Shown here: positions 945 to 40,180 of the stretch, piece after piece
Position numbering within the stretch: the stretch's first letter is position 1
How the letters are laid out: every line of letters begins with the position of its first letter
Assembly: GCA_964459435.1 (NCBI GenBank)
Contig: CAYWLU010000002.1
Location: 1 to 46,685 of the forward strand
Direction: 5' to 3'
From: an uncultured Candidatus Peribacteria bacterium
GTDB taxonomy: Bacteria > Patescibacteriota > Gracilibacteria > UBA4473
DNA: 46,685 bases
The notes under the pieces: generated by a model
Databases searched by the model: none
Seen by the model: only the letters and a program-made list of their open reading frames with translations
What the model was told of the DNA's origin: nothing
Translations under genes and position numbers: made by a program

Positions 945-971
945 AACATTATATTATAATATAATGTTATG
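942..971. repeat. 30-bp perfect palindrome containing TTATATTATAATATAA, overlapping cas4 start
   Basis: CATAACATTATATTATAATATAATGTTATG is its own reverse complement. Confidence 0.9.
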
Positions 972-1100
972 TTTTATGCAAGTCGAAAAATCGTAAGTTT
1001 TTACATTTTACCCCTCATCATCATTCTGGCTTGTCCCGAATCCAGTCACAAAAAACAAATCAAACCGATTACAAATCCAGTTACTACAAAAGTAATAATT

Positions 1101-1420
1101 ATCAGTATGTGCAATTTTTGCACTAACTGAATGTCTATCCATTTTTGAGGAGAAAGAACAAATAAATCAAAAGAGTCCCTGCCTCTCTTTTAAAGGGGTC
1201 GAATTCGACCCCTTTCACAACTCGCTATTCCATCGTCATTGCTAGTTCGCCGTGGCGAATGTGGCAATCTGTTTTCTTAATAAACTTCTACTTACTTTTA
1301 CCGCCATTGTCCAACTACCGAGGAATCCTCGGTAACTGAATCCAATTTTAAATTTGCAATGTATTCCAAAATGGAATGCACTGATTTTTCCTTTAATTCT
1401 TCGCACTCAAAGGTATTTTT
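1101..1420. pseudogene. Concatenated fragments resembling RhuM-family and KilA-N DNA-binding protein genes, centred on palindromes
   Basis: Minus-strand KNTFECEELKEKSVHSILEYIA, LDSVTEDSSVV, DRHSVSAKIAHT; plus-strand FKGVEFDPF; each sits on an imperfect or perfect palindrome. Confidence 0.55.
1235..1270. repeat. REP-like family A half element (GTCATTGC...GGCAATCT)
   Basis: Matches one arm of the family A elements at 21630, 25728, 29257, 31941. Confidence 0.65.
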
Positions 1421-1477
1421 CGAATATTTTTTGATTATTTGATGTGTATAGATGGAAAGTTGATTTTTGGAGATTAG

Positions 1478-4400
1478 TCATGATTGTTTGTTTTGGGTGA
1501 AGTTATCCCATTCAGTGTTTCCGATAAAAAGATTTGGATATTTCTTTTCTGGTTTTTCCTCTTTTTTTAACTTTTTATTATCTTTACTCCACTCATTAAT
1601 TTTTTGAAGTGTAATTACTCCCTTTCTCGCAATATTAAATGCTCCATTGTCATCCCCATTTTTTGGAAGCTTATTACCATTATCTGCACGGCTATCAAAA
1701 AATGGTGCAACTGGAGAAAGAATAAAATCATTATCATCTCCTTTTTCATCTAGATTTGTATTTCGAATCTGACAAATCAAGTTAAATAAGAAAATAAAAT
1801 CCCTAAAAAATTTCACATTTTCTTTTTCATTCAATGCCTCTATTTGTGCCTTAATATCTTTATTCCAATCAATCCCAGCATCCTCAAATAACTGCTTAAA
1901 TTCATTCGTCAAATCTCCATAATAGTCATACCCGCCCTTATTATTATTCAATCCCCTATTCCATCGAAATCGCTCTACACACGAACACACTGTCCAAATC
2001 GTATTTTTCGGAGCATCTTTCAGTTCTTTAAATTTTCCAATATCATAAGTAAACTCAAATCGATCATTCTCAAATTCTATTTTTGAAAATTTAAAAATCT
2101 CTTGTTTTGCTTTTTCTGCACTTGAATATTTCAAATACAAATTCGGTCGCCAACCAGTAATTGGATCAATTTTTGAGGTATAACTTGCAGTCGTATAAAA
2201 AATAATTCCTGTTTGTTTTCCCATATCTTTAAAAGTTTCAAATGGAGATGCTAATTGATATGCTTTTAGTAAATGACCCGCTTGTTCAGAATTCTTTTCC
2301 CCTTTGTTTACCAAGAAATTCAATTTCTCAATCAAAGCTTTTTCAAGTTGCTGATACACACTTTTTTCAATCCCTCCTCTAATTTGCTTAAATCGCATAT
2401 TTAAATCTTCAAATACAATAATAGCATTATACTTAATCGCTAAATCCGCCAGTTTTCGGACAACTTGAGAAATATATCCTTTTTTCAAGTCTTTAATCCC
2501 TTCCACCGCCTGCCAATCTTTTCTTTCTTGTTCTCGATTTTTTGCCTTTTCTTCTAGTTTTTGATGATAATCAACTCCATTTATAATATTCAAAGTTCCC
2601 GAAACAGGATTTCCATTTTTATCATGCAATATTTCTGACTTCTGATTTATCACAGAATAATACGCTAAATGCTTCTCTCCTCGATCTACTCCAATAATAT
2701 TTATATCTGGATTATGAGCCAAAAATTCATTTATCTGTTGATTAAAAGAAAACGGTTTTCCTGTTCCTCGATTGAGTGTCAAAGAAATATGAAAGAATAC
2801 TTTATTCTTTGTATAACGCTTCTTTTCAATTATTTCTCGTGGAAATTTTCGTTTAACTTTCACTGCATCAATTGCCTTTGGACGATAGAAAACTTCTGCC
2901 TGTCCATTTAATTTAAAAATAAAATTCTTTGCAATATTTTCCTCGGAAAAAAGATTTTCAAAATACATTGTATGAAGATTCTTGCTTCCTGTTGAACCTT
3001 TATTCCAATCCTTGTTTTTAATTTGAAAAAGATATAATTCACCATTTTTATTTTTTTCTTCGAGATGTTTTTCGGAAATATTATCCCAAGAGATTTTATA
3101 CCCACCTTTTTCTACTTCTCTATAAAAGCCACTAATGTCTTCATAAGAAGATGTATCAGAGAATGTAAAATCAAAATCTTTCCATTCTTTATGTTTTTTT
3201 AGAGAATTTTTAAAGAAATCAATCAAAGCATGACAGTCATTTATGTTAAAATCTTTTTTCTCAAAACCCTTTTGCGGATCCCCACCTTTTGTATGGCTTG
3301 AATGATTTCGAATTCTTAATATCTCAGCAGAAGGATTAAAAAAATCAATATTTGATTTACTGAAAAATACCTTCGGAAGCATTTTATTCGCCCCTGGTAA
3401 AAGTTTATAAACCATTTTTTCGTACTCATTTCCTGCAAATTCATCTCTATTTTTGTCATCAAAAATATGAGTATTACCTTTCTTCATCAATGCTAAAAAA
3501 TATTCCTCATCTTTACGCAAAATAACTGAAGCATTCGCACTTTCCTTATTTTTATCCCATCCATCAGAAAGAGTTGGTAAATCAAAATTCAACTTCCACT
3601 TCTGAACTTCTTCCCATGGTTTCTTTGTTAAATAATTTCTCAAAAGATTATAGGGCTGAATAATGGTTTCAAAAGTATCATGATAATATTCATCCTTGAA
3701 TAATGAATAGAAATTACTCTCTATCTCAATTGAATCATCCCATTTCTTTTTTTTCTCAATCGCAAAATACTTAGAAAATTGATATACCGACAATAAACTA
3801 TCTGCATAATCTTTAACTATAATTTTCATTTTAGGCGTTTTCTCCAACCCTTCCTCACTCAATAAATTTTTTAATTTTTCAGAAAAAATATCATACCCTA
3901 TCGTTTTTTCACCTTTATCTGTTTGAATTATTTTCTCAAAAAGTTCAGAAAATTCTATCTCAAAAATCTGCAAAAATTGACTCCAAATATCCTCCTGTAA
4001 CTTTATATTTTCTTGATACTTCTCCTTCCAGAAATTTCCCTTCATATTCAACTTCTCCAAAGATTTTTTGAGATACTCTAATGGAATAAAATCAGGAAAA
4101 GGAATTTCCCCACCCTCATTTTTCTTTAAAGTTTTCTTTTCCTCCTCCTTAAATACTTTTGCCAACGCATCAGCCCATTCATTCGTTTTATATGTCCAAC
4201 GCCGAGAAATCGTTTCAAAACCTTTCTTTGACCAATAAATTTTAGATAACTCAAACCCCTCTGGCGAATTTATAAATTTCCTAAAAAGAGCTTTAAGAAT
4301 TTGAGTCTTTTCCACCCCTGTTTTCAATAATTCTTCCAAAACTAATTTTAATCTCGTATCATCCTCTATTTCATCAATAAACTTTTCTTTTTCACTCAAA

Positions 4401-5311
4401 ATTTGTTTATCAAGTGTTTTTAAATATTGAATTTTTTCTTTTGTATCCTGTCGGTGCTTGTTTATCTTTGATTTCACCCTCCCAATAATATCATTATAAC
4501 GATTTATCCCTTTTGTCTTTTTTTCATCTCCCTGCAAAATAAATTCAACATAATTTTCAATATGACAAATTTCTTCTCTGTCCGCTATATCAAGTTTTGA
4601 TAAAAAATTAGATGGATATTTTTCTATCGTCCATATGTTTTCTACAAATCTTCGTAAATTTTGATCAATAATTCTTGTTGCCAAAGCAGTTGAAGTTCCA
4701 TCATCTTTATAAAAATTCTTTCGAGTCTCAAAAAATTTCGTAAAATATCCCGTAAAACCTTTCCATTCATCAAAAATAGATACCGTTTCTTCTGTTATTT
4801 CTCCAGTTTTTTTGTTCACATATTCTACAGAAATAAATGTCTCTGCTTCTTTCCCATATCGAACCTTTAATAATTCAGAAAACACTGCCTCTTCATCTAA
4901 AATTTTTAAATCGTTATTCTTTAATCCTAAATATTTCTCTGACCATTTTTTTGCCTGCGCATTAAAAAAACCAACAACTTCTTTCCTCAATCTTTTTTCT
5001 TCATTTTCAAGACCCTTTTTCCATTGGTCTTTTTGTTTTTTATCTGTTTCTTTCGTGATTTTTTTCACATTCTTTAGAGCATCTGCATACTGCTGAATAT
5101 TTGAAAAAGAAACATCCTTCAATGCTTCTGCAACAAATTCTCGATGTAAACGGTCAAAATACACTTTCGTTTGCTTATATTTTTTTTGAATAATTTCATC
5201 TTTCTCGAATACATGATTATCTTCTAGCATTTGCTGAGTCTTCCCCACAGGTTTCAACTCAAACCTCAAAGTCTTACTCAACTCATACAAATTTGTGAAT
5301 TCTTTAAACAT
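1478..5311 (-). CDS. cas12a: Type V-A CRISPR effector Cas12a (Cpf1), 1277 aa
   Basis: N-terminal FTNLYELSKTLRFELKP; PI motif YKLLPGANKMLPKVFFS; RuvC-I IIGVDRGEKHL, RuvC-II IVFEDL, RuvC-III NGDDNGAFNIARKG all intact; followed by cas4-cas1. Confidence 0.97.
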   Translation of the reverse strand: MFKEFTNLYELSKTLRFELKPVGKTQQMLEDNHVFEKDEIIQKKYKQTKVYFDRLHREFVAEALKDVSFSNIQQYADALKNVKKITKETDKKQKDQWKKGLENEEKRLRKEVVGFFNAQAKKWSEKYLGLKNNDLKILDEEAVFSELLKVRYGKEAETFISVEYVNKKTGEITEETVSIFDEWKGFTGYFTKFFETRKNFYKDDGTSTALATRIIDQNLRRFVENIWTIEKYPSNFLSKLDIADREEICHIENYVEFILQGDEKKTKGINRYNDIIGRVKSKINKHRQDTKEKIQYLKTLDKQILSEKEKFIDEIEDDTRLKLVLEELLKTGVEKTQILKALFRKFINSPEGFELSKIYWSKKGFETISRRWTYKTNEWADALAKVFKEEEKKTLKKNEGGEIPFPDFIPLEYLKKSLEKLNMKGNFWKEKYQENIKLQEDIWSQFLQIFEIEFSELFEKIIQTDKGEKTIGYDIFSEKLKNLLSEEGLEKTPKMKIIVKDYADSLLSVYQFSKYFAIEKKKKWDDSIEIESNFYSLFKDEYYHDTFETIIQPYNLLRNYLTKKPWEEVQKWKLNFDLPTLSDGWDKNKESANASVILRKDEEYFLALMKKGNTHIFDDKNRDEFAGNEYEKMVYKLLPGANKMLPKVFFSKSNIDFFNPSAEILRIRNHSSHTKGGDPQKGFEKKDFNINDCHALIDFFKNSLKKHKEWKDFDFTFSDTSSYEDISGFYREVEKGGYKISWDNISEKHLEEKNKNGELYLFQIKNKDWNKGSTGSKNLHTMYFENLFSEENIAKNFIFKLNGQAEVFYRPKAIDAVKVKRKFPREIIEKKRYTKNKVFFHISLTLNRGTGKPFSFNQQINEFLAHNPDINIIGVDRGEKHLAYYSVINQKSEILHDKNGNPVSGTLNIINGVDYHQKLEEKAKNREQERKDWQAVEGIKDLKKGYISQVVRKLADLAIKYNAIIVFEDLNMRFKQIRGGIEKSVYQQLEKALIEKLNFLVNKGEKNSEQAGHLLKAYQLASPFETFKDMGKQTGIIFYTTASYTSKIDPITGWRPNLYLKYSSAEKAKQEIFKFSKIEFENDRFEFTYDIGKFKELKDAPKNTIWTVCSCVERFRWNRGLNNNKGGYDYYGDLTNEFKQLFEDAGIDWNKDIKAQIEALNEKENVKFFRDFIFLFNLICQIRNTNLDEKGDDNDFILSPVAPFFDSRADNGNKLPKNGDDNGAFNIARKGVITLQKINEWSKDNKKLKKEEKPEKKYPNLFIGNTEWDNFTQNKQS

Positions 5312-7082: not shown

Positions 7083-7212
7083 GTCATACCGCATTTATTG
7101 CGGTATTTAACCATAAAACAAAGCAGGTGCTTAATTAACAGCCAGATCCCGCAATAAATGCGGGATGACAGAGGGTGTAATGCGGAATGACAGAGGTTAA
7201 ATGCGGGATAAC
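7083..7212. repeat. REP/MITE-like family B element with extra partial tandem ends
   Basis: GTCATACCGCATTTATTGCGG...GATCCCGCAATAAATGCGGGATGAC; internal sequence shared with 35654-35740. Confidence 0.8.
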
Positions 7213-7224
7213 ATATTATAATAC

Positions 7225-7743
7225 TCACTTTTCCAAAAAATACTCATGAATTCTAATTTCGCCAACTAATTCTGGATGAAAACTACATACTAAAAAATTA
7301 TCTTGTTCCACTAATACTGGTTCATCATTAAAACTTGCTAAAACAATACCCGTTTTACCAACCTTAAATTTAGGAGCTCGGATAAAAATCCCTTTAAGTT
7401 CTGAAAACATTTCCGATTCCAATTCAGCTTCAAAAGAATCTTTTTGAGCCCCATAACCATTTCTATCTACTTCAATATCCATCCCTAACTTGGCACATAA
7501 TATTGACCCAGCACAAGTACCAAAAACTTTTAGTCCCTTTATACTCTTTTCTAATTCTTCCCACATTCCAGACTTCTTAAGTAGTTTTTCTATAGTGGTA
7601 CTTTCTCCTCCGGGAATTATCAAATGCGTTAGATTTATTAAATCTTGTTTTGTTTTTACTAAAATAAATTCTTGTTTTAGTTTTTGCAGAACAACTTCGT
7701 GTTCTGAAAAGGAACCTTGTAGCGCTAAAATACCTACTTTCAT
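7225..7743 (-). CDS. pdxT: PLP synthase glutaminase subunit PdxT
   Basis: GILALQG, PGGESTT, GTCAG, FIRAP, FHPEL motifs. Confidence 0.95.
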   Translation of the reverse strand: MKVGILALQGSFSEHEVVLQKLKQEFILVKTKQDLINLTHLIIPGGESTTIEKLLKKSGMWEELEKSIKGLKVFGTCAGSILCAKLGMDIEVDRNGYGAQKDSFEAELESEMFSELKGIFIRAPKFKVGKTGIVLASFNDEPVLVEQDNFLVCSFHPELVGEIRIHEYFLEK

Positions 7744-7753
7744 CGTAATATAA

Positions 7754-8617
7754 TCAACGACCAGCAAATTCTGTTTCTAAATCTTCCATTTCCATTCCCT
7801 CCATTGCCTCTCCTATATTTTTCGAAACTTTTGCCAATAGTTCTGGATCTTTGAAATGAGTAGTTGCTTCCACGATGGCTCTAGCCATCTGTTTAGGATT
7901 CTCTGCCCCAAATATCCCCGAACCAACAAAAACTCCTTCTACTCCTAATTGCATCATTAAGGCGGCATCTGCTGGAGTAGCCACTCCTCCAGCAGCAAAA
8001 TTAACCACTGGTAACTTCTTTTTATTAAAAACCATGCGAACAAGTCTCTTGTCTACACCGAACTCTTTGGCTTTCCCTTCTAAATTAGAACTAGTTAGTT
8101 CTCCTATTTCTCTGTTAATACATCTTATATGTCGCACTGCTTCTACAATATTACCAGTACCTGCTTCGCCTTTAGTTCTAATCATAGCCGCTCCTTCTGC
8201 AATTCTCCGTAACGCTTCTCCTAAATTTCTCGCTCCACAAATAAAAGGAAGTTTGAACTCATTTTTATCTATATGATTTTCTTCGTCTGCCGGAGTAAGT
8301 ACTTCAGATTCATCTATAAAATCAATATCTAGCACTTCTAGAATTTGTGCCTCCACAAAATGACCAATCCGCACCTTCGCCATAACAGGAATAGAAACTG
8401 CTCGCTTAATCTCTCTAACCATTGAAGGATCTGACATCCGAGCCACTTTTTTATCTTTGCGAATAAGAAAAGGAATCCTTTCTAAAGCCATAACAGCCAC
8501 CGCACCAGCTTCTTCTGCAATTTTAGCCTGCTCTACATTCATAACATCCATAATAACTCCCCCCTTGAGCATTTGAGCAAGTCCAGATTTAAGAAGAAAA
8601 GTATTTTTTTGTACCAT
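7754..8617 (-). CDS. pdxS: PLP synthase subunit PdxS
   Basis: [43 protein letters not shown]. Confidence 0.97.
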
Positions 8618-10334: not shown

Positions 10335-10350
10335 TTATATTATAATATAA
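10335..10350. repeat. TTATATTATAATATAA palindrome (exact)
   Basis: Exact 16-mer, 7 nt past the stop of the FtsL-like gene. Confidence 0.85.
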
Positions 10351-16750: not shown

Positions 16751-16768
16751 ATTGATTATAATATACTA

Positions 16769-18235: not shown

Positions 18236-18251
18236 TTATATTATAATATAC
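18236..18251. repeat. TTATATTATAATATAA variant (15/16)
   Basis: TTATATTATAATATAC in the divergent hydG/hydE gap. Confidence 0.7.
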
Positions 18252-20791: not shown

Positions 20792-20853
20792 TCACTACAT
20801 TATAATATAACAAAAATTGGCTTTTAGCTTTTAGCTAATATATAATTCAGCTA

Positions 20854-23186: not shown

Positions 23187-24364
23187 AAAAACTAGTCTCT
23201 AATCAAATATCTCCCAATTTTACTTTTACAGACAGTCTGTATGCAGTAAAACAGATATTTGTTTCTAATTCTCAAAAAAATACAGCATATTATAATATAC
23301 TATTCACTAAACACTTTGGTACAGAAAATTTCTTCTTAACTAACGCCATTCGTACTGGACTAGCTAAAATCATAGAAGCAACTAATCCCTCTAAAAAGAA
23401 AAAAATAGGCATACCTGCTTTTATTTGTGCCGTGGTGGCTACCCCCTTTTTAAAGGAAAACTATGAAATAGAGTGGTTAGATACCGACAATAATGGAGTC
23501 ATTTCTTTGGAAGAATTCAAGAAAAAAGCAGATAAGCTTTCTGTTATCGTAGTTCCTCACATTTTCGGACAAAAAGCACCTTTAGAAAGAATTTTTAGCA
23601 TAGCCCAAGAGAAAAATATTCTAGTTATAGAAGACTGTGCTCATCTTTTTGAACTCCAAAATCACCCTCCTATGCATTGCGATGTCAGAATCGCAAGTTT
23701 CGGAAGAGAAAAAGTCTTTTCTTGTGTGTCTGGTGGAGCAGTAATTTGGAATAAAAAATCTCAATTTTTTACGAATAAAACCTTTAAATTAGAAAAGGCT
23801 AGCAAAGGCTGGACTATCCGTCATGCCCTGCAACCCTTAATTTTTGCTTTAGCTATTCCTTGGTGGAACTGGGGAGGTAAAATAATCCCTTATTTAGCTA
23901 GTAAAACAAAATTATTGCCCAGAGCAGTCACAAACTCAGAAAAGAAAGGAAAAGAAGACTTCCCTCTTTATGCTCTTCCCGTAACTCAACAAAAAATCTT
24001 GTTAAGTAAATTACAAAAAGCAGACCAAATCATTGCTCACCGCAAGAAACTAGCTATCGCTTGGAAAAAAACTCTCACTAAACTTTTTCCAGAAGCCAAA
24101 ATAATTGTGCCAGATAATGCTTTTCGAGTAATTCTAAAAACAGAACGCAAACAAATAGTATCTAAGGCTAAAAAATCAGGATTCAATCTCCACGAATGGG
24201 ATGGTATTCCTATTTCTCCTGCTGGTACAGATTTAAAGAAATTCAACTATCAACTTGGACAATGCCCAAAAGCAGAACACTTTGCCCAAAATTATGTTAC
24301 TTTTCCGACAAATATCAGAACCAGTTTGAAGGATATCGAAATTTTTGAGAAACTCTGGTCATAG
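23183..24364 (+). CDS. DegT/DnrJ/EryC1/StrS family PLP-dependent aminotransferase
   Basis: HIFG, IEDCAH, SFGREK..SGG, CPKAE. Confidence 0.85.
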   Translation: MKKLVSNQISPNFTFTDSLYAVKQIFVSNSQKNTAYYNILFTKHFGTENFFLTNAIRTGLAKIIEATNPSKKKKIGIPAFICAVVATPFLKENYEIEWLDTDNNGVISLEEFKKKADKLSVIVVPHIFGQKAPLERIFSIAQEKNILVIEDCAHLFELQNHPPMHCDVRIASFGREKVFSCVSGGAVIWNKKSQFFTNKTFKLEKASKGWTIRHALQPLIFALAIPWWNWGGKIIPYLASKTKLLPRAVTNSEKKGKEDFPLYALPVTQQKILLSKLQKADQIIAHRKKLAIAWKKTLTKLFPEAKIIVPDNAFRVILKTERKQIVSKAKKSGFNLHEWDGIPISPAGTDLKKFNYQLGQCPKAEHFAQNYVTFPTNIRTSLKDIEIFEKLWS

Positions 24365-26507: not shown

Positions 26508-26548
26508 AAATTAGATAACAAGATCATAAGATTACGAGATAACAAGTA

Positions 26549-26564
26549 GTATATTATAATATAA
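26549..26564. repeat. TTATATTATAATATAA variant (15/16) inside a longer inverted repeat
   Basis: CAAGTAGTATATTATAATATAATATACTACTACTTG. Confidence 0.7.
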
Positions 26565-27854: not shown

Positions 27855-27857
27855 ATA

Positions 27858-28791: not shown

Positions 28792-28850
28792 GTATCTCAA
28801 AAAAGTATAGAAAAAAATACATTATTCAACAAGCTAGAAGTTACACGAAC

Positions 28851-28981
28851 TAAGATCTTGCTAAAAAATACCGTTATGCGAGGCGTAGAACGAAAAGCAA
28901 AGCGATGGCGTACATAAACTGTACGAAGAGCTGCTTTTTGATCTACAACGAAGGAAAAGGGTGTTTTTTAGCAGATCCCTA
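28851..28981. mobile_element. ~130-bp TA-flanked palindromic element
   Basis: Imperfect TIR TGCTAAAAAATACC / GGTGTTTTTTAGCA; central CGTACA..TGTACG hairpin; right end coincides with rpsU stop. Confidence 0.65.
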
Positions 28982-29185
28982 GCTCAAAAACTGTTTCTTT
29001 TTAGTCTCAGCTCTATGTTTCTCTCTAACCACTGCCGCATTACGAACATCTATTTTACGAGGACTCTGTCTAAAATAACGGAGCGTTCTAAACTTTTGAA
29101 GAAGTCTTCTAGATTTAATATGATTAGAAAATCGCTTGAGCAATTTATCACCAGATTCACCGTCTCGTTTCAATACCTTTATCAT
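28979..29185 (-). CDS. rpsU: 30S ribosomal protein S21
   Basis: MIKVLKRDGESGDKLLKRF...RYF basic S21 pattern. Confidence 0.8.
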   Translation of the reverse strand: MIKVLKRDGESGDKLLKRFSNHIKSRRLLQKFRTLRYFRQSPRKIDVRNAAVVREKHRAETKKKQFLS

Positions 29186-29256
29186 CGGGAAAGAGTTTAG
29201 TTTTTGCTTTAATCTTGTCAATATTTTTTATAATTTCTCACAGCTTTTTATCAACC

Positions 29257-29374
29257 GTCATTGCGATCAGGATGATCTTGCAATGAACGAAGTGAATTGG
29301 AAGAGCTTGCCGAGAAGTAATCTGTTATTTATTAAGAAAATAGATTGCCACGTCGCTCCGCTCCTCGCAATGAC
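29257..29374. repeat. REP-like family A element
   Basis: GTCATTGCGATC...AGATTGCCACGTCGC...CTCGCAATGAC. Confidence 0.85.
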
Positions 29375-29399
29375 AATACTGAAAACTTTTATTTTATAC

Positions 29400-30623: not shown

Positions 30624-30700
30624 GGTTTTTACACTAAAAATCTCTCTAAAGAAGATTATCTACATTTGATTATTTTTGCAAATTCTGATACAAATAATTC

Positions 30701-31819: not shown

Positions 31820-31870
31820 CAAGTTATAAATCTTCAATCTACAATTATCAATCTTCAATTTAAGGATAGA

Positions 31871-31890
31871 TATTATATTATAATATAATA
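31871..31890. repeat. 20-bp perfect palindrome containing TTATATTATAATATAA
   Basis: TATTATATTATAATATAATA. Confidence 0.85.
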
Positions 31891-31940
31891 GGACTTAGGA
31901 TTTAGAACTTAAAGCTTAGATTAAAAATTAAGAAACTAAT

Positions 31941-32025
31941 GTCATTGCGAGGAACGAAGTGACGAAGCAATCTCATTATTTCAAATAAGAGATTGCCACA
32001 TCCGCCACGGCGGATTCGCAATGAC
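31941..32025. repeat. REP-like family A element
   Basis: GTCATTGCGAGG...GAAGCAATCTC...GAGATTGCCAC...TTCGCAATGAC. Confidence 0.85.
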
Positions 32026-32112
32026 AGCTTATAGGGATGATGTAAAAACTTTTTCTCATTGATAATTGTAGATTGTAGTTTGAAAATTTAATTTCTCATT
32101 CTCCATTCTCCA

Positions 32113-33969
32113 TTACCTCTCCCCTCCTATATACCGTATTTGACTATTAGTTGAAATGCCTGACAACAGGTAGCCACTTAACCAATCCGTAGAATCTGTT
32201 CGATGAGGTCGACTAGAATGATCCGACCAAATAAAATTAGCTCCACTCGTTCGAATATCAGCTAAAGTCCCCGTATTATAATTTGAATCTCTTAGAAAAC
32301 TAACACTCACTGAATCCAAATCAGAATTACCATTTAAATCTGTAAGTTTCAGTTTAAGAACGAATTCAAATTCTGAAGTTCTATTTAAAAGTAATGGATT
32401 AACCGCCTCAAAAATAACTATATCCCCTGCCCCAAGAGAAGGTTCAAAACTAACTCCACTCGTCTCCCTTCCTCCAATAAGCTGTTTTAATTCGAAATCA
32501 TCCGCAGACCTTCCTCCTGAAAATTCTAAACCAGATGAACGAACAACTAAAGACATTCTACCAAGAGAGATATCTCTAGCATCCGAATTAATGATCTTAA
32601 ACTTATAAACCTGAGTTAAATTTTCGTTTGTAGAAAATCCTTGCGGTTGGTTTTCAGAAGGTTCCATACTTAATTCCCCTCCCGCACGAACAGCTATAAA
32701 AGTTTCTGAATTTGTTAAAAAATTCTTATTAGCAGTTGGTACTTCTCGTCCAGATCCATATCCATAAACTATTAAATCTTCTGGAGATATTTCTAACTTA
32801 AATCTTGTATCTTGAGTTTCATGATTTACTCGATCGGACAATCTAACTTCGAAAGCAATTCGACGACTATCTTCCCGATCAACTCGTACCGAAGGACTAA
32901 AATGAAATTTTGCTCTACCCCCAGAAAAACGAGATTCACCCAATACTAAACCTGTTTCCTGATCTAACGCCCTTATCCTATTCACAAAAGAATCAATATC
33001 ATTACCATAAAAATTTTCTATCGTAACTTCTTGGATAAACATATCATCGTAATGAGCCTCAAAATTAAAAGCTAAGGCAATCGTACTTTCACTACTAGAA
33101 ACCGCTTTCCCATATATTTGTTGTTGAGTCTGACTAGTAATAACTGGGTTACCTGAAGTTTGTGGAGCAGGATTAAAAGCAATAACTTCTGAAGCCATGT
33201 CTCCGCTATTAACAGCTTTTACTTCTGTTTGCGCTAATTCTTTGACACCAACCGCCTCCAACAATCTAATCTGAAACGATCCAGGAATATTGGGAGTTAT
33301 CTCTGGATTATGGATTTTTAAATCAATACCAAATCTTAAATCCTCGCCTTTCGCCATTCGTGCCTGACGAAATTTAAGAGTAACTTTTCCATCTGAATTA
33401 AACTGAAAAGATTCTTCTACGGTCTGTAAATTACCAGTTTCTGCAAACTCTTCAAAATTAACACTCAAATCAAATTTAGTAGGGTCTTCTGCCAACCCAC
33501 TACTCGCAAACATCTGAAAAGTTAAAGTATCTAATAACAAAGCTTCCACAAAATCAGTAGAACGAGTGTTATTAGCATGAGAAAGACCTATTTCAAAAAC
33601 ATGAACTGGAGTTGCATCAATTACTGAGAATGGTTGTTTAGGTCTAATAGGATTTACGCTCACTCGCAAATTACTTACTTTAACGGAACTATAGACTCTT
33701 TTATTAGAACGCTGAACTGTATTAGTTTTCCGAGAAGGTTCCTCTGGAACAACAGTACTCACACTTCTATTCCGATTGCTATAATATCCTGGCCCCCAAG
33801 TAGGAGTATTTCTTTTAATAGAACGATAAGTCCTTCTCGTTTTATTCACTCTTCTGATCCAATTTTCCCAATATTCTGGACCATAAGTAGAGTAAGTCAC
33901 TGCCTCAACCACTTCTAAAGCAAAACAGAACACAAAAAGTCCAAATAATGATAAAATGATTTTTTTCAT
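32113..33969 (-). CDS. Secreted protein with Arg-rich N-terminus and repeated beta-sandwich-like domains
   Basis: Signal peptide MKKIILSLFGLF...VEA; start moved because 34051-34078 is a terminator. Confidence 0.75.
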   Translation of the reverse strand: MKKIILSLFGLFVFCFALEVVEAVTYSTYGPEYWENWIRRVNKTRRTYRSIKRNTPTWGPGYYSNRNRSVSTVVPEEPSRKTNTVQRSNKRVYSSVKVSNLRVSVNPIRPKQPFSVIDATPVHVFEIGLSHANNTRSTDFVEALLLDTLTFQMFASSGLAEDPTKFDLSVNFEEFAETGNLQTVEESFQFNSDGKVTLKFRQARMAKGEDLRFGIDLKIHNPEITPNIPGSFQIRLLEAVGVKELAQTEVKAVNSGDMASEVIAFNPAPQTSGNPVITSQTQQQIYGKAVSSSESTIALAFNFEAHYDDMFIQEVTIENFYGNDIDSFVNRIRALDQETGLVLGESRFSGGRAKFHFSPSVRVDREDSRRIAFEVRLSDRVNHETQDTRFKLEISPEDLIVYGYGSGREVPTANKNFLTNSETFIAVRAGGELSMEPSENQPQGFSTNENLTQVYKFKIINSDARDISLGRMSLVVRSSGLEFSGGRSADDFELKQLIGGRETSGVSFEPSLGAGDIVIFEAVNPLLLNRTSEFEFVLKLKLTDLNGNSDLDSVSVSFLRDSNYNTGTLADIRTSGANFIWSDHSSRPHRTDSTDWLSGYLLSGISTNSQIRYIGGER

Positions 33970-34047
33970 ACATATAGTATAACGAAAATAAATTAAATTT
34001 GTGACATTATTCTCACAGAAAACAAAAAGTCTCCAATTTTTTGTTTT

Positions 34048-34078
34048 AAAAAACCGCCTCAATTATTTGAGGCGGTTT
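34048..34078 (-). terminator. Intrinsic terminator
   Basis: AAACCGCCTCAA-loop-TTGAGGCGGTTT with T-run on the minus strand. Confidence 0.75.
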
Positions 34079-34105
34079 ATACTTTCTATTACTCAGTAAA
34101 ATTTC

Positions 34106-34996
34106 TTATGCTCCCTGTAAAAAAATTCTAAAAGAATCAAAAATCTTTTTAGATACTCCAATAAATCTAGACGCATTCCTTACGGAAGTTTTTGTTTCGA
34201 TAATATACATACCACCTTCCAAGTCAGCAACAATATAACGGTTGATATATCGTTCCGTACCTTCTTCTGTGCCAACAAAACTTTCAGTATAAGTTTTAGT
34301 CTGAATGTTTTCACCTAAAATAGTATCTGAAAAATGGGTTTGTCGCGTAATAGGGGGAGTAATAATTATCTTATCCCGAGAAGTTTTGTAATTTTCATTT
34401 CTAGATAAAGTAATAGCACAAGCCATAAATCCGCTCATACAACTAGATTCCGCTCTTTTAATAGAAACTGTAAAATCACTGTAATTAGAAGTGAAAAAAT
34501 GACCTTCATCTCCAGATAGATTCCAAGATTTTGGAATTTGAACAGAAAACGAATCATTCTCAAAAGTTTCAAAAACTTCTACTGCATCTTGAATTTTCTG
34601 GAAAGAAATAGCCTCCACTTTATTTAGGTTTGATTTCCAAGCTAAAGTTCTATCTCCTGTTGCCCGCAAAGGACGACGAAGATTGGCTTCTGCCTCCAAA
34701 GAACCTCCTTCGGAAAAAGCATTGCGAGTATCATGTAAAGAATAGCGAAGATTTCTACTAGTATTAACACCACGACGGCGTGAATTTTTTTGAGTAGAAA
34801 TTAAAGATCTTCTTACTGTTCCTTTTCTTTGTGTAAAAGTTCGCACTTTATAGATAGAAGTAGGAACCTTTTTTTGTCGTTCTAATTTCTGACGATACAA
34901 ATAAGTATGATAAGTATCACGAGAAGCATCTGTAAAAGGAATTACAGCACTGACTACAAGAGCTAAGCCGAGACCGATAGAAAGTAATTTATTCAT
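34106..34996 (-). CDS. Secreted protein, Arg-rich N-terminus plus PsbP-like C-terminal domain
   Basis: Signal peptide; FSVQIPKSW...KKIFDSFRI pattern. Confidence 0.7.
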   Translation of the reverse strand: MNKLLSIGLGLALVVSAVIPFTDASRDTYHTYLYRQKLERQKKVPTSIYKVRTFTQRKGTVRRSLISTQKNSRRRGVNTSRNLRYSLHDTRNAFSEGGSLEAEANLRRPLRATGDRTLAWKSNLNKVEAISFQKIQDAVEVFETFENDSFSVQIPKSWNLSGDEGHFFTSNYSDFTVSIKRAESSCMSGFMACAITLSRNENYKTSRDKIIITPPITRQTHFSDTILGENIQTKTYTESFVGTEEGTERYINRYIVADLEGGMYIIETKTSVRNASRFIGVSKKIFDSFRIFLQGA

Positions 34997-35011
34997 GGTA
35001 TGAAAAATTAT

Positions 35012-35524
35012 TTAAGAAGTTAAAGAATTATTTTTAGTATATGTTTCTTTTGTATTTGCTGAATCAATTCGTAAATCAATACGAACTTTAGAATTTATAG
35101 TTTTTGAAATAGCTAATTTAGTTTTCGCACTCATTTGAGAAGCTCGATAATCTAAAAAACTTTCTCTAACTAAAGAATATCTTCCATTATTTGCCAAACA
35201 ACGATCACAACGATTCAGTTCTCTTTCGTTAGGCCGACGATACTTGAAAGATCCACGCCGATCAGTAAATGTTCTTAATTTCCGTGTTGGAGCATAACAA
35301 CAATTTATCTTAGAATTGGGAAAATAAGTTCTAATATCCACATAATTACGAGGACAACGAACCATTTCTGGTCCAAAACGATTTTCTTCTTCCGCCCAAA
35401 CCTGATTTGGTTGAGCAGTCTTGGTAGAAGGATACGGAAGTACAACCCCCTCTGCTTCTATATTAGCTATTAAAGCTGAAGCAGATAATCCTAGTCCGAG
35501 AATAAAAAAGTAAATTTTGTTCAT
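35012..35524 (-). CDS. Secreted hypothetical protein, Cys/Arg-rich
   Basis: Signal peptide ending EA; five Cys. Confidence 0.6.
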   Translation of the reverse strand: MNKIYFFILGLGLSASALIANIEAEGVVLPYPSTKTAQPNQVWAEEENRFGPEMVRCPRNYVDIRTYFPNSKINCCYAPTRKLRTFTDRRGSFKYRRPNERELNRCDRCLANNGRYSLVRESFLDYRASQMSAKTKLAISKTINSKVRIDLRIDSANTKETYTKNNSLTS

Positions 35525-35653
35525 CTCTATAAAATATAAACCAACCAGCTGACTTACATAAATCAGCTTTTTTGTTTTTTATTTTTATTCGACAATCTTT
35601 TTAAATGAAAAACAGAATTTTGTCAAACTTTTTCTATACTTTTTTAATTTTTT

Positions 35654-35740
35654 GTCATGCCAGATTTATTCTGGTATCTAACCACAAAGCAAAGCAGATG
35701 CTTAATCGACAGCCAGATCCCGCAATAAATGCGGGATGAC
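35654..35740. repeat. Family B element
   Basis: Near copy of 7083-7169 including interior. Confidence 0.8.
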
Positions 35741-35804
35741 AAAGGGTGAAATCCATGATGACAAACAATATCCCCCCGATGCAAGCATCGGGTAAATCTT
35801 CCAA

Positions 35805-35820
35805 TTATATTATAATATAA
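35805..35820. repeat. TTATATTATAATATAA palindrome (exact)
   Basis: 6 nt past the stop at 35827. Confidence 0.85.
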
Positions 35821-35826
35821 CACCTT

Positions 35827-37275
35827 TTACTCTACGTCTACAGCTTTAAACAACAAAGAAGAAAACGTTTTTTTCTTCTGTCGAACATCATTCAAAAAGT
35901 AATCTAATCCTTCTGGAACTTCAATTTTAATTTTCCAAACAAAACTATTATTAGGTTCTACAAAAGTAAATACTCCGACCCTTTTCCCTTCCATTCTCAT
36001 AACAAACAATCTTCCCAAATGACTTTTAGACATTGAAGTTTGTCGCGAATTATTATTAGCATTAGCTATATCTTCCAACTGGATTTGCATATTAGAATCT
36101 TGCAAAATATTACCTTTAGGAAATTCTTTTTTTGTTTCTATGGCAAATTTCCCTGCTGTTGTTTCCATACACCTGCGTTTAAGACGAGGCGTTTGATCTG
36201 AACAAACAGTACTAGTAGCAGTTATTTCGACAAGCCCTTCTTCGCTTTCAAAACGAGCAGTCCCCTCACTCCAATCTAAATTATCAGAAATAAGAACAAA
36301 GTCCTTTGGTAATTCCACAGAAAAAGGAATTTTTTCTGCCTCAAATGTTAAGATTTGATCACTACCAAAAGTTATAGGATTTTTTGTTCTAGGAGCAACT
36401 CCGACCGTACTTTTTTTGTTAGTTGTAGTATTAGTAATCTTTTGCGGTATTTTCTCGTTTGTAGAATTAATTTCTAATAAAGAAGAAAACACCTGATAAA
36501 GAACCTTATTATCATCTAAAATTGTTTTTCCTGTCCCTGCCGAAGTAATACGCATCAACCAAACAAAATTATTGATCGGATCAAAAAAAGTCAATTGACC
36601 AGCTTTGTAGTTTAAAGAATTAAGTCCCACGAACCAACCTCTGTTTTTAGAAGTTAATTGCACAGTATTAGGATCTAGAGAAACTCCTTCATTCTTATTT
36701 AATTCCAAAAAAGGTAATTCTTTCTTAAATTCTTTCAAATAACTATCTGATTTTGCTTGCAAACAACTTCTAATAAATGTATCTCCACCTTCACAGCGAT
36801 CTTCTGTGGCCTGAATTTTTACAATCGCATTCCCTTGACGCAATTTCAAACTTCCTGTTGAACGATCTAAATTGTCTTCTAATAAAACAAAAGTATTTGG
36901 TAATAAAATATTAAAAGGAATTTTTGAGGCAGAAAACAACTTTAGATCTTCTTGTTTCTCAACAACTTGTATTGAATTTTTAATATTACTAGTAGTAGAA
37001 TAAATTCTTCTGGTAGAAGGCCTAGCTGTATATCTTGAAGTACTTTTTCTAATAGAAGTTTTTCTAGTAGTTGTTCTCCTAGAATCCCTTCTCCGATATG
37101 AACGCCTACTCATATTCTGCTTAATAGTAGCAGCAGCTTTTTCTATATTTTGGATATAAGAACTAATCCTACCTCCAGAAGCTCTAAAACGACTGGTTTT
37201 ACTAGATGCTTCTACTTCCAAAGAAGCCCCAACAGTGGCTAAAATCATAAAAACGACAATAAGAATTTTTTTCAT
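35827..37275 (-). CDS. Secreted protein with Arg/Ser/Thr-rich N-terminus and two tandem homologous domains
   Basis: Signal peptide ending VEA; repeated KIPF..LP..FVL..DNLD...C...C...FVW...FSSL. Confidence 0.75.
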   Translation of the reverse strand: MKKILIVVFMILATVGASLEVEASSKTSRFRASGGRISSYIQNIEKAAATIKQNMSRRSYRRRDSRRTTTRKTSIRKSTSRYTARPSTRRIYSTTSNIKNSIQVVEKQEDLKLFSASKIPFNILLPNTFVLLEDNLDRSTGSLKLRQGNAIVKIQATEDRCEGGDTFIRSCLQAKSDSYLKEFKKELPFLELNKNEGVSLDPNTVQLTSKNRGWFVGLNSLNYKAGQLTFFDPINNFVWLMRITSAGTGKTILDDNKVLYQVFSSLLEINSTNEKIPQKITNTTTNKKSTVGVAPRTKNPITFGSDQILTFEAEKIPFSVELPKDFVLISDNLDWSEGTARFESEEGLVEITATSTVCSDQTPRLKRRCMETTAGKFAIETKKEFPKGNILQDSNMQIQLEDIANANNNSRQTSMSKSHLGRLFVMRMEGKRVGVFTFVEPNNSFVWKIKIEVPEGLDYFLNDVRQKKKTFSSLLFKAVDVE

Positions 37276-37391
37276 GTTTGTTTTCAAAAAAGTACCCGTA
37301 GAGTATGGATTCAAAAGAGAAAAGTCAAACTTAGCTGTTAACTATTAACTATTACAGAATCTAACTTTTTAGCTTTTTAGCTTTTAGGCTT

Positions 37392-37853
37392 TTAGACCGT
37401 CTTTATAACAAACTGTCGATAAAGTTGTTCTAATTTATCTCCTGCCATAGAAATAAGTTCGGCCAAGAGCTTTTGTAAATATCTAATTTGAGCAACAACT
37501 TCTTCTAATTTGTTAGCCGAAAAATTCCTTTTTTGTTGAAGTTTTTTAGCCTGACTAATCAAGTTATCTGTTTCTTTTTCTAAAGAAGAACGGACTTTCT
37601 TCTGTTGCACTTCAAAAGAAGGTAGAGAAACTTGTTTTCGTTCTTTAGAGAAAAGAAGATCTTTTACTTTATTAGAAATAACAGAAAAACCCGTTTTAGT
37701 AGTAACAACAGAACCTGTAGATACATCTTCTCCCGCATTCTCCCCCACTAGTTCTGAAACCTTTTTCGTACTAGACAAAACTTCACTCAAGGCTTCTCCG
37801 CCACCTTGAGCTACGATTTCCGTACTAAGTCTCTTTTCAAATTTGTTATCCAT
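37392..37853 (-). CDS. Hypothetical helical protein
   Basis: 153-aa ORF, no recognised motif. Confidence 0.6.
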   Translation of the reverse strand: MDNKFEKRLSTEIVAQGGGEALSEVLSSTKKVSELVGENAGEDVSTGSVVTTKTGFSVISNKVKDLLFSKERKQVSLPSFEVQQKKVRSSLEKETDNLISQAKKLQQKRNFSANKLEEVVAQIRYLQKLLAELISMAGDKLEQLYRQFVIKTV

Positions 37854-37931
37854 TTAGCTAAATGTAGAAATTTTTTAATTTTTGTCAAAACTTTAGCAGA
37901 GTTTAACACATTTTTTTAAAAAAAGCAATAC

Positions 37932-38666
37932 CTAAACAATAACTTTGTGTTCTTTAACATCATGAATTCGTAAGAATCTAGCGCCAGATTCAATTGCCAT
38001 CTTAGCTGCCTCCAAATTAGGCTGCACATCAAAACGATTTTCTCCCAAAAAACGCTTACAAGAATGACCAATCATTATCTTTTCTCCTGGAACAAATTCG
38101 GCAAAACGAAGTAATTCCCTATTGAGTTCCATTGTTTTCCCAAAACCAATCCCAGGATCTAAAACAATCTTATCTAGATCTACTCCAGACTTAATTAATT
38201 CTTCTTTACGAGCTAATAACTCATCCTTTACTTGATTTATTGAACAAATTTCTTGTTCATGCACTTCTCCTATAGTTTTCCCTGGAAAGTGGTTAACAAT
38301 AACCATAGAAAACAAAGGAGCCAATTCGCTCATCCGCGGATCCCCAAAGCCAGAAACATCATTTAATATTCTACCTCCAAAATCCAAAAACTTCTGAGCT
38401 ACTTCTGGATGTTTAGTATCTAAAGATATCTTATCTGACATTATCTCTTTTAATACTAACTCTATTCTCCCCCACTCCTCCTCTCCTTCTATTTCTCTAG
38501 CTCCTGGACGAGTACTTTGTCCTCCCACATCTACAAAATCTGCTCCATCTGCAAATAATTTATTAGCTTGTGCTATCGCCTTCTTTGGATCTATAAATTC
38601 TCCGCCATCAAAAAAAGAGTCTGGAGTTATATTCAAAATACCAAAAAGTTTTATTATTTTATTCAC
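37932..38666 (-). CDS. folP: Dihydropteroate synthase
   Basis: GILNITPDSF.DGG, DVGGQSTRPGA, LDPGIGFGK, RIHDV. Confidence 0.94.
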   Translation of the reverse strand: MNKIIKLFGILNITPDSFFDGGEFIDPKKAIAQANKLFADGADFVDVGGQSTRPGAREIEGEEEWGRIELVLKEIMSDKISLDTKHPEVAQKFLDFGGRILNDVSGFGDPRMSELAPLFSMVIVNHFPGKTIGEVHEQEICSINQVKDELLARKEELIKSGVDLDKIVLDPGIGFGKTMELNRELLRFAEFVPGEKIMIGHSCKRFLGENRFDVQPNLEAAKMAIESGARFLRIHDVKEHKVIV

Positions 38667-38723
38667 AGTTGAATTATAAACTTTTTAAAGCTAAAAGCAT
38701 TTTCATATACCAAATATTGAATT

Positions 38724-39461
38724 TTATTCTGACACTTTAAATAAACGTGCCCATTCTTTGTCAGCATTTAGATTACTTATCCCTTTACTAAGAAGATCAT
38801 TTTTAACCGCATCCTTCATACTATAAGTATCATGAACTTTTAGGAAATCCTCTGCTTTTCCGAAATAACGAACTGCTGCCAGAAAATTCAGATCACTAAG
38901 ACTGCGTTTATTAAAATACTTAATATTACTTACGTCTACACCTTCCTTAGAAAGTTGCAAAATTGCCTCTCCCCAACCGCCAAGTCTATCATTATCGCCT
39001 GGTAACATTCCCACAAATCTTTCATCAACATTTATCCCCACTTCCACAAAACGAATTAAATCCTTTTTTAATTGCCACTTTTTAAGAAATCCAAATTTTT
39101 TCCCTTTCAGTAAACCTTTTATTTTCTCCTTTATTTGTTTTTTTTCTCCTCGATTAGCTGACTCCAAAAATTCCTGATGTGCTTTTCCTGTATCTATGGT
39201 TGTGTTATCTGCATCCGCTTCTAACCACTCTCCTTCTAATATTTTATTGGGATCGGCAGAACTTGACTTGTCAGATTGTTCATTTTTTCGTATTTCCCCC
39301 ATAACCTCCGCCCTTTTTTCACAATTTCCACCATTATTTTCTGGCTTTTCATTCTGCTCAGAAGGAATATTTTCTACTTGCTGATAACGAGATGGTTGTT
39401 CTGCTGCCATATTTAGAATATTAAATCTTTTCATTATATCATATTTATACATATTAGACAA
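38724..39461 (-). CDS. Hypothetical protein (start uncertain, possibly 39410)
   Basis: Long ORF, charged N-terminus, no recognised motif. Confidence 0.55.
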   Translation of the reverse strand: MSNMYKYDIMKRFNILNMAAEQPSRYQQVENIPSEQNEKPENNGGNCEKRAEVMGEIRKNEQSDKSSSADPNKILEGEWLEADADNTTIDTGKAHQEFLESANRGEKKQIKEKIKGLLKGKKFGFLKKWQLKKDLIRFVEVGINVDERFVGMLPGDNDRLGGWGEAILQLSKEGVDVSNIKYFNKRSLSDLNFLAAVRYFGKAEDFLKVHDTYSMKDAVKNDLLSKGISNLNADKEWARLFKVSE

Positions 39462-39497
39462 ATTGATTTTCTGTTAATTTTCCATAAAGTAAGAGAG

Positions 39498-40163
39498 ATG
39501 AAAGCCCCTATCATTGTTCTCGAAGGCCTAGATGCTTGTGGAAAGACAACTCAAACAGAACTTTTATTAGAGAATCTAAAAGAGAAGGGTTTAAAAGTTG
39601 GCTGGAAAAGATTCCCTAGTTATGACACCAATCCTGCTGGATCTAGGATTGCTGCTTATCTTCGAGGAGAACTTGGCAGTATGACAGATATAGATCCCCG
39701 GATGATCGCTAATCTATATGCAGCTGACCGCATTTTTGCCATAGAAGAAATAGAAAAATCACGAGAAGAAAATGATGTCGTTATTTTTGACCGTGGAGTC
39801 AGTTCTAATCTCATCTACACTCCATCTAGAGGAACAAACGACAAAGAGGTTAAAGAACTGGAAGATTTTGTAGAAAAATTAGAATATGAAGTCTTTGGTT
39901 TCCCTAGAGAAAGTTTAGTTATCTTTTTAGATGCAACAGATGAAGCCAGACAAAAAATCCATGCTGCTAAAAATAGACTAGCTGACCTTCATGAATCTGA
40001 CGAAGAGTATCTCAAAAAAGTAAGAAAAGTTGCTTTGACTAGATGTGATAATGATTTCCGTTGGGTCAAGATTCCCGTAGACAAAAATGGAGACCTGCGA
40101 AGAAGGGAAGAGCTGGGTCAAGAAATATTGACTTTGGTATTAGAAAAATTACAAAAGAAATAG
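39498..40163 (+). CDS. tmk: Thymidylate kinase
   Basis: LEGLDACGKTTQ, LYAADR, IFDR, VIFLD. Confidence 0.92.
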   Translation: MKAPIIVLEGLDACGKTTQTELLLENLKEKGLKVGWKRFPSYDTNPAGSRIAAYLRGELGSMTDIDPRMIANLYAADRIFAIEEIEKSREENDVVIFDRGVSSNLIYTPSRGTNDKEVKELEDFVEKLEYEVFGFPRESLVIFLDATDEARQKIHAAKNRLADLHESDEEYLKKVRKVALTRCDNDFRWVKIPVDKNGDLRRREELGQEILTLVLEKLQKK

Positions 40164-40164
40164 A

Positions 40165-40180
40165 TTATATTATAATATAA
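40165..40180. repeat. TTATATTATAATATAA palindrome (exact)
   Basis: Fills most of the 21-bp tmk-folD gap. Confidence 0.85.

Follow-up and report, generated by a model that had tools for sequence, protein, structure and literature searches.

The ParB site parS, the Noc-binding sites (NBS), the SlmA-binding sites (SBS) and the MatP site matS are palindromes of 12-16 bp that exist in tens of tightly conserved copies and are read by dimers. Repetitive extragenic palindromes (REPs) are species-specific, reach hundreds of copies, often lie behind genes and are mobilized by REP-associated tyrosine transposases (RAYTs), and HIP1 of cyanobacteria is a GC-rich word of 8 bp that is abundant in genes and for which other authors have proposed a link with methyltransferase sites. 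The uptake signal sequences (USS) of the Pasteurellaceae are evenly spaced. The DNA uptake sequences (DUS) of the Neisseriaceae show species-specific dialects, exceptional over-representation, permissive intergenic placement and inverted pairs at gene ends or terminators (PMC3630211); the copy numbers reported there, set against the one genome size in the same paper, correspond to a density of ~1-2.5 per kb. Here, a dispersed palindrome in a window of 46,685 nt (contig C2 of the assembly GCA_964459435.1 of an uncultured Candidatus Peribacteria bacterium, hereafter G000) is analysed and compared with these systems. The palindrome recurs throughout the genome in letter-perfect copies, is confined to two species of the genus and lies almost entirely between genes. 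We tentatively read it as a self word that resembles a DNA uptake sequence and would be recognized by a symmetric protein.

Anatomy and abundance of the palindrome

The assembly comprises 937,885 bases in 119 contigs (35% GC, rated 95.6% complete), and the standard genetic code fits it. The exact 16-mer occurs five times in the window (Table 1) and is absent from each of 100 dinucleotide-preserving shuffles. Allowing up to two mismatches gives 10 matches in the window against 0.18 expected, corresponding to eight places plus re-reads shifted by 5 nt at 10340 and 26554. The whole genome holds 46 exact 16-mers, and after overlapping re-reads were merged, 134 places with at most two mismatches were counted (46 exact, 39 with one mismatch and 49 with two). 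The 12-mer core ATATTATAATAT has 121 exact copies, compared with 0, 0 and 1 in three genomes simulated with a third-order Markov model, and the shuffles and simulations together rule out an artefact of composition. Forms of the core with one mismatch are also in excess (58 vs. 8-19 in the simulations), whereas those with two mismatches are not (238 vs. 204-236), indicating that the copies are all-or-none and leave no tail of decayed relatives.

The conserved unit is a 20-bp palindrome, YR-(TT/GT/GC)ATATTA·TAATAT(AA/AC/GC)-YR, in which the dot marks the centre. The central 10-mer TATTATAATA is found 127 times, and ~120 of these bear one of three outer triplets on either side. Counted by half-site, the triplets are TTA (153), GCA (50) and GTA (35), and they pair independently of each other (TTA/GCA 34 vs. 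31 expected; GCA/GCA 2 vs. 5 expected). Position 17 is a pyrimidine in 237 and position 18 a purine in 221 of the 250 half-sites, beyond which (outside position +/-10) the same half-sites carry no information, and thus no fixed -35 box accompanies the word. The left and right flanks match each other as direct repeats in 34 cases (29.8 expected) and are complementary in 31 (30.2 expected). The independent halves and the neutral flanks therefore describe a 20-bp palindrome of two 10-bp halves that lacks target-site duplications and bears no trace of having been selected as a hairpin. An RNA or single-stranded DNA hairpin and an intrinsic terminator were also considered as the function of the word and are ruled out, since neither the halves nor the flanks covary. 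Canonical terminators are neither excluded by the motif nor linked to it; hairpin-plus-T-run terminators are rare in this genome according to a simple finder, which places one in ~3-7% of the co-directional and 14-20% of the convergent spacers when those from 25 nt upward are considered. The half TATAATAT(AA/GC/AC) occurs 278 times on both strands, and 250 of these lie within a full palindrome, showing that the whole palindrome, rather than a -10 box with a discriminator, is the unit. As the word is palindromic, its strand balance is trivial.

Distribution among relatives and turnover of sites

The relatives were represented by a set of 41 genomes drawn from the genus itself, from a further 22 genera of its family and from a further 16 families of its class. 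The exact 16-mer is present in two of them, G000 (46 copies) and the congener G002 (78 copies), and the copies of G002 agree with those of G000 in their variants and YR flanks. The congener G001, whose genome is 70% complete, has no exact 16-mer. A scan of all species genomes gave at least 119 stretches with the 16-mer, nearly all of those listed being single copies in unrelated taxa that have no bearing on the question. Searches of the full-text literature with the 16-, 14- and 12-mer strings gave chance matches only (chloroplast, Plasmodium and similar), and a paper on heptamer repeats (PMC4679880) contains no palindrome.

Words private to other genomes were sought by a k-mer survey of fetched genome samples. 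The congener G001 has a 17-mer of its own, GTATACTGGG(A/G)GTATAC, in 76 copies with at most one mismatch (40 forward, 36 reverse), and none of the 40 other genomes has it. Its outer GTATA...TATAC is in common with the GTA-type variant of the G000 word; it lies mainly between genes (of 24 sites sampled, 6 are within open reading frames (ORFs)) and often stands between 7-nt runs as in G000. The same genome has a dispersed perfect palindrome of 24 bp, AACAAGGGGTTTAAACCCCTTGTT, at nine places in 280 kb. A genome of another genus of the family (G004, genus g3) carries the 13-mer AATCCCGCGAAAT 659 times in ~0.8 Mb (332 forward, 327 reverse), that is 0.8 per kb, and the 40 other genomes together have a single copy. 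The wider consensus of this 13-mer is AAAATCCCGCGAAATTT, and its 10-mer core has 251 copies in 194 kb, 64% of them within ORFs and in all six combinations of frame and strand. In statistical terms the G004 word looks like a textbook uptake signal sequence; it shows the density and the frequent placement in genes that mark the DUS, which the G000 word does not.

About one third of each of the two congeners was fetched for reading. G000 and G002 are syntenic, with a DNA identity of 72-81% and a mean protein identity of 79% over 201 reciprocal best hits. A script scored the word at 115 syntenic junctions as present in both genomes at 5, in G000 only at 10, in G002 only at 10 and in neither at 90. 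Reading of the 25 word-bearing junctions by eye gave ~9 with the word in both genomes, 8 with it in G000 only, one of them uncertain, and 7 with it in G002 only, as four of the one-sided scores were artefacts of the ORF calls or the search pattern. In the shared copies the core persists even where the spacer around it has diverged beyond alignment, a pattern that speaks for maintenance. Two junctions record how a site may originate. Between pdxS and pdxT, G000 has TGA-TTATATTACG-ATG and G002 has TAA-TTATATTATAATATA-ATG; between tmk and folD, the full word of G000 corresponds to TTATAATACAAT in G002. Comparison of the two pairs of sequences indicates that these sites arose by small local changes and not by insertion of a unit. 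Most G000-only copies are situated within blocks of 130-260 nt composed of a run of 7-nt repeats, the word and another such run, where G002 has only 1-48 nt.

These blocks are among the observations that would be expected of a selfish mini-repeat, either REP/RAYT-like or a miniature inverted-repeat transposable element (MITE) of which only the two terminal repeats are left, side by side, and which multiplies by copying into the DNA between genes. Such a repeat would also account for the many near-identical, species-private copies, and G000 is rich in other small repeats. Some GC-ended copies have at least 20 nt of flank in common within a recurring module of 7-nt runs, indicating that limited segmental copying occurs. 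Nevertheless, we consider a selfish repeat very unlikely. The flanks contain neither target-site duplications nor complementary stretches in excess, the halves do not covary as those of a hairpin would (TTA...TGC is common and GCA...TGC falls below expectation), and the Y1-transposase family PF01797 has no match in the 95.6%-complete G000. The pdxS-pdxT and tmk-folD sites point to an origin in place, the copies repel one another rather than cluster, and G002 has more copies in compact spacers without extra blocks. The suggestion of the earlier note that the word is the target or scar of a site-specific mobile system is disfavoured by the missing target-site duplication, the missing Y1 transposase in G000 and the in-place origin. 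From visual inspection of its translation, the gene enclosed by two copies at C30:195-1163 presumably encodes a cell-wall enzyme of the YceG/MltG type and does not resemble a transposase.

Many G000 copies are embedded in the recurring module, which reads (CAATCTT)n, ATTAAGGAT, ~4 nt, the palindrome (often GC-ended), TAAAGAAAGCT and (AAAAGYT)n, the C-rich run following the upstream stop and the A-rich run pointing toward the next gene (e.g., 31820-31872 and 31889-31940 in the window). The G002 word is mostly free of 7-nt runs. At the tmk-folD junction of G001 (L005 1100-1480), a small inserted gene has runs of 7-nt repeats on both flanks; its product may resemble the four-helix-bundle proteins of 23S rRNA intervening sequences.

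Placement between genes and relation to promoters

Placement was measured against crude gene calls of our own, namely the longest ORFs from 60 aa upward after greedy resolution, which give 970 ORFs covering 86% of G000 and are not a curated annotation; the corresponding sample of G002 was 300 kb. Of the 134 places, 10-11 lie within ORFs, 10 at contig edges and the remainder in spacers. Nine of ten intragenic calls use the single stop-free frame of the word, and several are probably mis-called starts. The density per kb of spacer in G000 is 1.02 between co-directional, 0.86 between divergent and 1.24 between convergent genes (chi2 1.47, 2 degrees of freedom), and that in G002 is 1.50, 0.99 and 1.53, respectively (chi2 1.01). 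The word is thus blind to the geometry of transcription. Some copies take up all of the space that separates converging stop codons (26 nt in G000; 14 and 17 nt for two cases of G002). Where the spacer allows 40 nt or more of freedom, copies are found at most 7 nt from the upstream stop codon more often than expected (9 vs. 2.7 in G000; 9 of 13 vs. 1.3 in G002), whereas the downstream start codon exerts no such pull (4 vs. 2.7 in G000; 0 vs. 1.3 in G002).

The copies avoid one another, and their spacing is more even than chance. Of the G000 contigs, 30 reach 10 kb; the 83 copies in their spacers each have a spacer of their own, so that no spacer has two or more (10.6 +/- 2.3 under the null). 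Neighbours less than 1.5 kb apart number 2 in G000, compared with 10.4 +/- 2.7 under a one-per-spacer null, and 0 in G002, compared with 3.6 +/- 1.7; the coefficient of variation of the gaps in G002 is 0.50 vs. 0.82 +/- 0.13.

A site of this kind could serve a lineage-specific dimeric DNA-binding protein with a role on the chromosome itself, acting as a nucleoid or domain-boundary protein, as a roadblock to transcription at gene ends or as a global repressor. A repressor would sit on the symmetric -10 element described below, and one site every few kb would organize or insulate transcription units. The tightly conserved palindrome of two independent 10-bp halves, the single copy per spacer, the even spacing, the hugging of the upstream stop codon and the retention of orthologous copies amid diverged flanks are all consistent with this explanation, as is the highest density in convergent spacers, although that difference is not significant. 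However, no candidate protein emerged, as the ParB-type family PF02195 has no match in G000, G001 or G002 and the counts of sigma factors gave no pointer to a reader. A housekeeping architectural protein is not expected to exchange its word completely between congeners, about two thirds of the sites are not common to G000 and G002, and the word and intrinsic terminators do not exclude each other. We therefore rate a chromosomal role of a dimeric protein as rather unlikely. The site of a global regulator or nucleoid protein offered in the earlier note would be compatible with the symmetry of the word and the independence of its halves.

G000 lacks a Shine-Dalgarno (SD) signal ahead of its starts. 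SD-like 4-mers stand upstream of 10% of the starts as against 14% of random windows, and TAnnnT boxes ending 6, 7, 8 and 9 nt ahead of start codons number 57, 54, 66 and 71, compared with ~30-40 at flanking positions. Owing to the absence of the SD sequence and the TAnnnT peak close to the starts, leaderless mRNAs are likely in this organism. On either strand the palindrome contains TATAAT at positions 7-12 and TATTAT at positions 4-9. TATAAT at 7-12 lies opposite TATTAT at 13-8, as does the mirror pair, which by our mapping is a reciprocal -7/-11 register. Bacterial two-way promoters are described as having reciprocally paired -7/-11 positions and start sites 18 bp apart (PMC10268837). With this geometry, the word might primarily be a symmetric bidirectional promoter that is independent of a -35 box and yields leaderless or short-leader transcripts on both sides.

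Several observations speak for such a promoter. The YR step at positions 17-18 is one of them (237 and 221 of 250 half-sites). A long ATG-initiated ORF lies within 80 nt in 55 of the 268 site-directions, and the distances have two peaks, with six starts at motif position 16 and ten at positions 18-24, followed by four in the next 18 positions and ~1 per position thereafter. The TATAAT of the palindrome is 8 nt ahead of the ATG at cas4 and folD, and in G002 the ATG of uvrA and that of pdxT are at motif position 16. A tRNA of G002 begins 3 nt past a copy, and a GC-ended half faces the downstream gene in 19 cases vs. 6. From the TATAAT-ATG distances, the G002 tRNA and the orientation of the GC half, the word is probably the promoter of a gene that abuts it.

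As a general function, however, the promoter fails. The density in convergent spacers is no lower than elsewhere, as it would need to be for a promoter, and copies fill gaps of 14-26 nt between two stop codons. Half-sites hardly ever stand alone (250 of 278 lie within the palindrome), the all-or-none conservation is unlike that of promoters, and the word is private to two species. Ordinary promoters of G000 differ from it, as they have the form TTGAnn-N16-18-TAnnnT or TGnTAnnnT, placed for leaderless starts. At C7:35088 of G002, a conserved promoter of the former kind (TTGATY-N17-TGCTACAAT) is interposed between the palindrome and the gene, and in G000 it is present without the palindrome. The distance from the motif to the ATG is also unstable for the same gene, the word abutting the ATG in G002 and lying 108 nt upstream in G000 (C3:44317). 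A generic promoter scan of the window from 30000 to 42000 found 38 sites, compared with 38.4 in shuffles. The bidirectional -10 element for leaderless transcripts proposed in the earlier note therefore stands locally, in an SD-less genome with a TAnnnT peak and with cas4 and folD as examples, and falls as a general function, given the equal densities and the filled gaps between convergent stops. That the word is primarily a bidirectional promoter is unlikely.

The copies of the window are collected in Table 1. The positions of the exact, 15/16 and 14/16 copies given in the earlier note were reproduced, and the copy at 23285 matches at 13 of 16 letters. On the crude ORF list, the closeness to stop codons reported there holds (7 nt for the 117-aa gene, 3 for hydF, 6 for the 495-aa gene and 1 for tmk), and so do the distance of exactly 4 nt from a copy to the ATG of cas4 and of folD and the TATAAT on both strands, which is read directly in the palindrome. 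Its claim of a count far above chance agrees with the genome-wide Markov comparison of the core given above. The restriction of the word to two species and its different counterpart in a congener go beyond what that note foresaw.

Table 1. Copies and partial copies of the palindrome along the window
Copy	Position	Surroundings
Exact	949..964	cas4 ATG (minus strand) 4 nt away; cas12a stop 513 nt upstream of the copy
Weak relative, ~11/16	7211..7226	At the pdxT stop
Left half only, TTATATTACG	~7754-7767	pdxS-pdxT junction; the congener G002 has the full word here
Exact	10335..10350	7 nt past the stop of a 117-aa gene; 49 nt upstream of the start of a BT1-family transporter (minus strand)
Degenerate, ~12/16	16751..16766	2 nt past the stop of a hydG-like radical-SAM gene
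15/16, ending ...ATAC	18236..18251	Divergent spacer between two radical-SAM genes; starts 87 and 48 nt away
14/16, CTACATT...	20795..20810	3 nt past the hydF stop; 43 nt ahead of a hydrolase start
13/16, GCATATTATAATATAC, GCA...TAC form	23285..23300	In the only stop-free frame, within the first 40 codons of a crude DegT-family ORF
15/16, GTATATT...	26549..26564	AI-2E transporter ORF starts 33 nt on
Exact	31873..31888	Convergent spacer; stops 53 and 224 nt away; runs of 7-nt repeats on the flanks
Exact	35805..35820	6 nt past the stop of a 495-aa gene; within ~150 nt absent from the orthologous G002 junction
Exact	40165..40180	Fills the tmk-folD gap: 1 nt past the stop, 4 nt ahead of the ATG; G002 has only TTATAATACAAT

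Further features of the window and the genome were recorded alongside. The 513 nt at positions 965-1477, between cas12a (1478-5311) and cas4 (390-944), contain no ORF of 80 aa or more. Contigs of two DNA runs compared with positions 26000-45999 belong to the same organism; the joints seen at the motif and at the 7-nt runs are due to repeats, and the comparison gave no hint of a function. GC hairpins of the GTCAT... type are abundant, as at 35560-35800 of the window and in many other spacers, and their 14-mer AAATGCGGGATGAC occurs 61 times on both strands. Of the longer GTCATTGCGAG...CTCGCAATGAC structures, two begin 3-4 nt past a copy of the palindrome (C1:13498 and C7:1683). The only Rfam family found in the window is the tRNA-Gly. 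In G000 the motif lies directly upstream of 1 of 36 tRNAs within 160 nt. A different leader block abuts the 5' ends of tRNAs, exemplified at 16301-16470 (minus strand) upstream of the tRNA-Gly at 16225-16300; it spans ...GGGGTAGCTGA... to ...AGTCCTCACCGACGA, precedes ~18 of 36 tRNA and transfer-messenger RNA (tmRNA) genes including that of tmRNA, occupies most of the 160 nt inspected and has no Rfam match at the gathering score in the window.

The uptake-word reading and known systems

A species-private recognition sequence on double-stranded DNA, bound by a symmetric and presumably dimeric reader, would bring the preceding observations together. Copies would build up in permissive non-coding DNA by small mutations in place, followed by preferential retention. 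The competence machinery would favour DNA with the organism's own word, and recombination would then spread the copies and keep them letter-perfect, until about one copy stands in each fragment-sized stretch wherever it is harmless. Since this all-A/T word has stop codons in four of the six frames, the harmless places would be directly after stop codons and in the spaces from one gene to the next. The TATAAT boxes would, incidentally, probably act as a promoter of leaderless transcripts wherever an ATG lies at motif position 16-24, as at cas4 and folD in G000 and at uvrA and pdxT in G002. The closest known class of mechanism is the DNA uptake sequence, in which biased uptake and recombination, rather than transposition or gene regulation, multiply and refine a word. 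It is favoured because the dialects, the letter-perfect and evenly spaced copies, the in-place origin, the orientation-blind placement at gene ends and the single coding frame fit together. One exact word is over-represented, in the 46 16-mers and the 121 core copies against 0-1 simulated. It is specific to a clade (2 of 41 genomes), and G001 and G004 have words of their own. ComEC and DprA are found above the curated cut-offs in each of G000-G004, so that these two parts of a competence machinery are in place. In another group of the candidate phyla radiation (CPR), natural comEC-dependent competence has been reported in a paper that does not mention uptake sequences (PMC10633639). The bias in uptake and an effect of the word on transformation would follow from the proposed mechanism. 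The more specific proposal, that G000 and its sister species label their DNA as self with an uptake word in the form of a 20-bp palindrome of A and T alone and that the congener and the neighbouring genus use different words for the same end, is conceivable but doubtful.

Several observations weigh against an uptake word. We know of no uptake sequence that is a palindrome, no uptake sequence in Patescibacteria was found among the papers listed in our literature search, and no reader protein was identified, although no presence/absence profiling search was made; RAYT and ParB were considered for this part and not found (PF01797 in G000; PF02195 in G000-G002). The word is not frequent in genes (10 of 134 places are in ORFs), and its density of ~0.14 per kb is low compared with the ~1-2.5 per kb of the DUS, as computed from PMC3630211. 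The promoter-like traits described above, namely the tRNA of G002, the orientation of GC-ended halves, the YR step and the two-peaked ATG distances, count in the same direction, as uptake predicts none of them. The private word of G001 has complementary flanks and a hairpin-like look, unlike that of G000, and PF01797 has matches in G001 and fragments in G002; hence the private words of the genus may be REP-like. Moreover, the G001 word has no stop codon in any frame and is mostly intergenic all the same. Finally, no comparable private word was found in small samples of other relatives (G003, 200 kb; G012, 100 kb; G006, 68 kb; G005, 40 kb; G017, 20 kb).

If the uptake-word reading is correct, uptake sequences and their dialects would be seen in the CPR for the first time, and the word would be the first palindromic one, calling for a symmetric receptor. 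CPR bacteria are tiny, mostly uncultured and reliant on external DNA and nucleotides, and natural competence has been shown only recently, in one group (PMC10633639). Private words that differ between congeners would give a handle, at the level of sequence, on the partners of DNA exchange within the radiation, and a word added to transforming DNA would be a practical lever for genetics. If the word is instead the site of a boundary protein or a two-way promoter, it would be a compact and sharply defined 20-bp part in an SD-less, partly leaderless organism.

Compared with the known systems, the palindrome shares with parS, NBS, SBS and matS the dispersed, tightly conserved copies. However, those words are family-wide and lie mostly within genes, and G000-G002 lack a ParB match. 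HIP1 resembles it as a lineage-specific palindrome maintained in very many copies by some drive or selection, but differs in being 8 bp long, GC-rich and abundant in genes, whereas the G000 word has 20 bp, is all-A/T and is nearly confined to spacers. REPs are likewise extragenic, species-specific palindromes often located behind genes. In contrast to the G000 word, which has neither covariation nor a Y1 transposase, they form imperfect hairpins rich in GC, share a conserved GTAG-type tetranucleotide and have a Y1 transposase of their own.

The bidirectional sigma-70 promoters (Warman et al. 2021, as presented in PMC10268837 and in the abstract of PMC12825309) have the same pseudo-symmetric -10 element with -7T and -11A paired reciprocally, the same predicted starts 18 bp apart and the same possible antisense output. 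They are, however, degenerate and ubiquitous, whereas the G000 word is a rigid 20-mer private to two species; nor are they equally dense between convergent genes or present in all-or-none copies, and the word is both. The DUS and USS are asymmetric 10-12-mers with ~1 or more copies per kb, while the G000 word is an all-A/T palindrome of 20 bp with ~0.14 copies per kb and is nearly confined to spacers. What the word has in common with them (PMC3630211 for the DUS) is a species-specific, over-represented and letter-perfect sequence with dialects in relatives and sites in permissive DNA and at gene ends.

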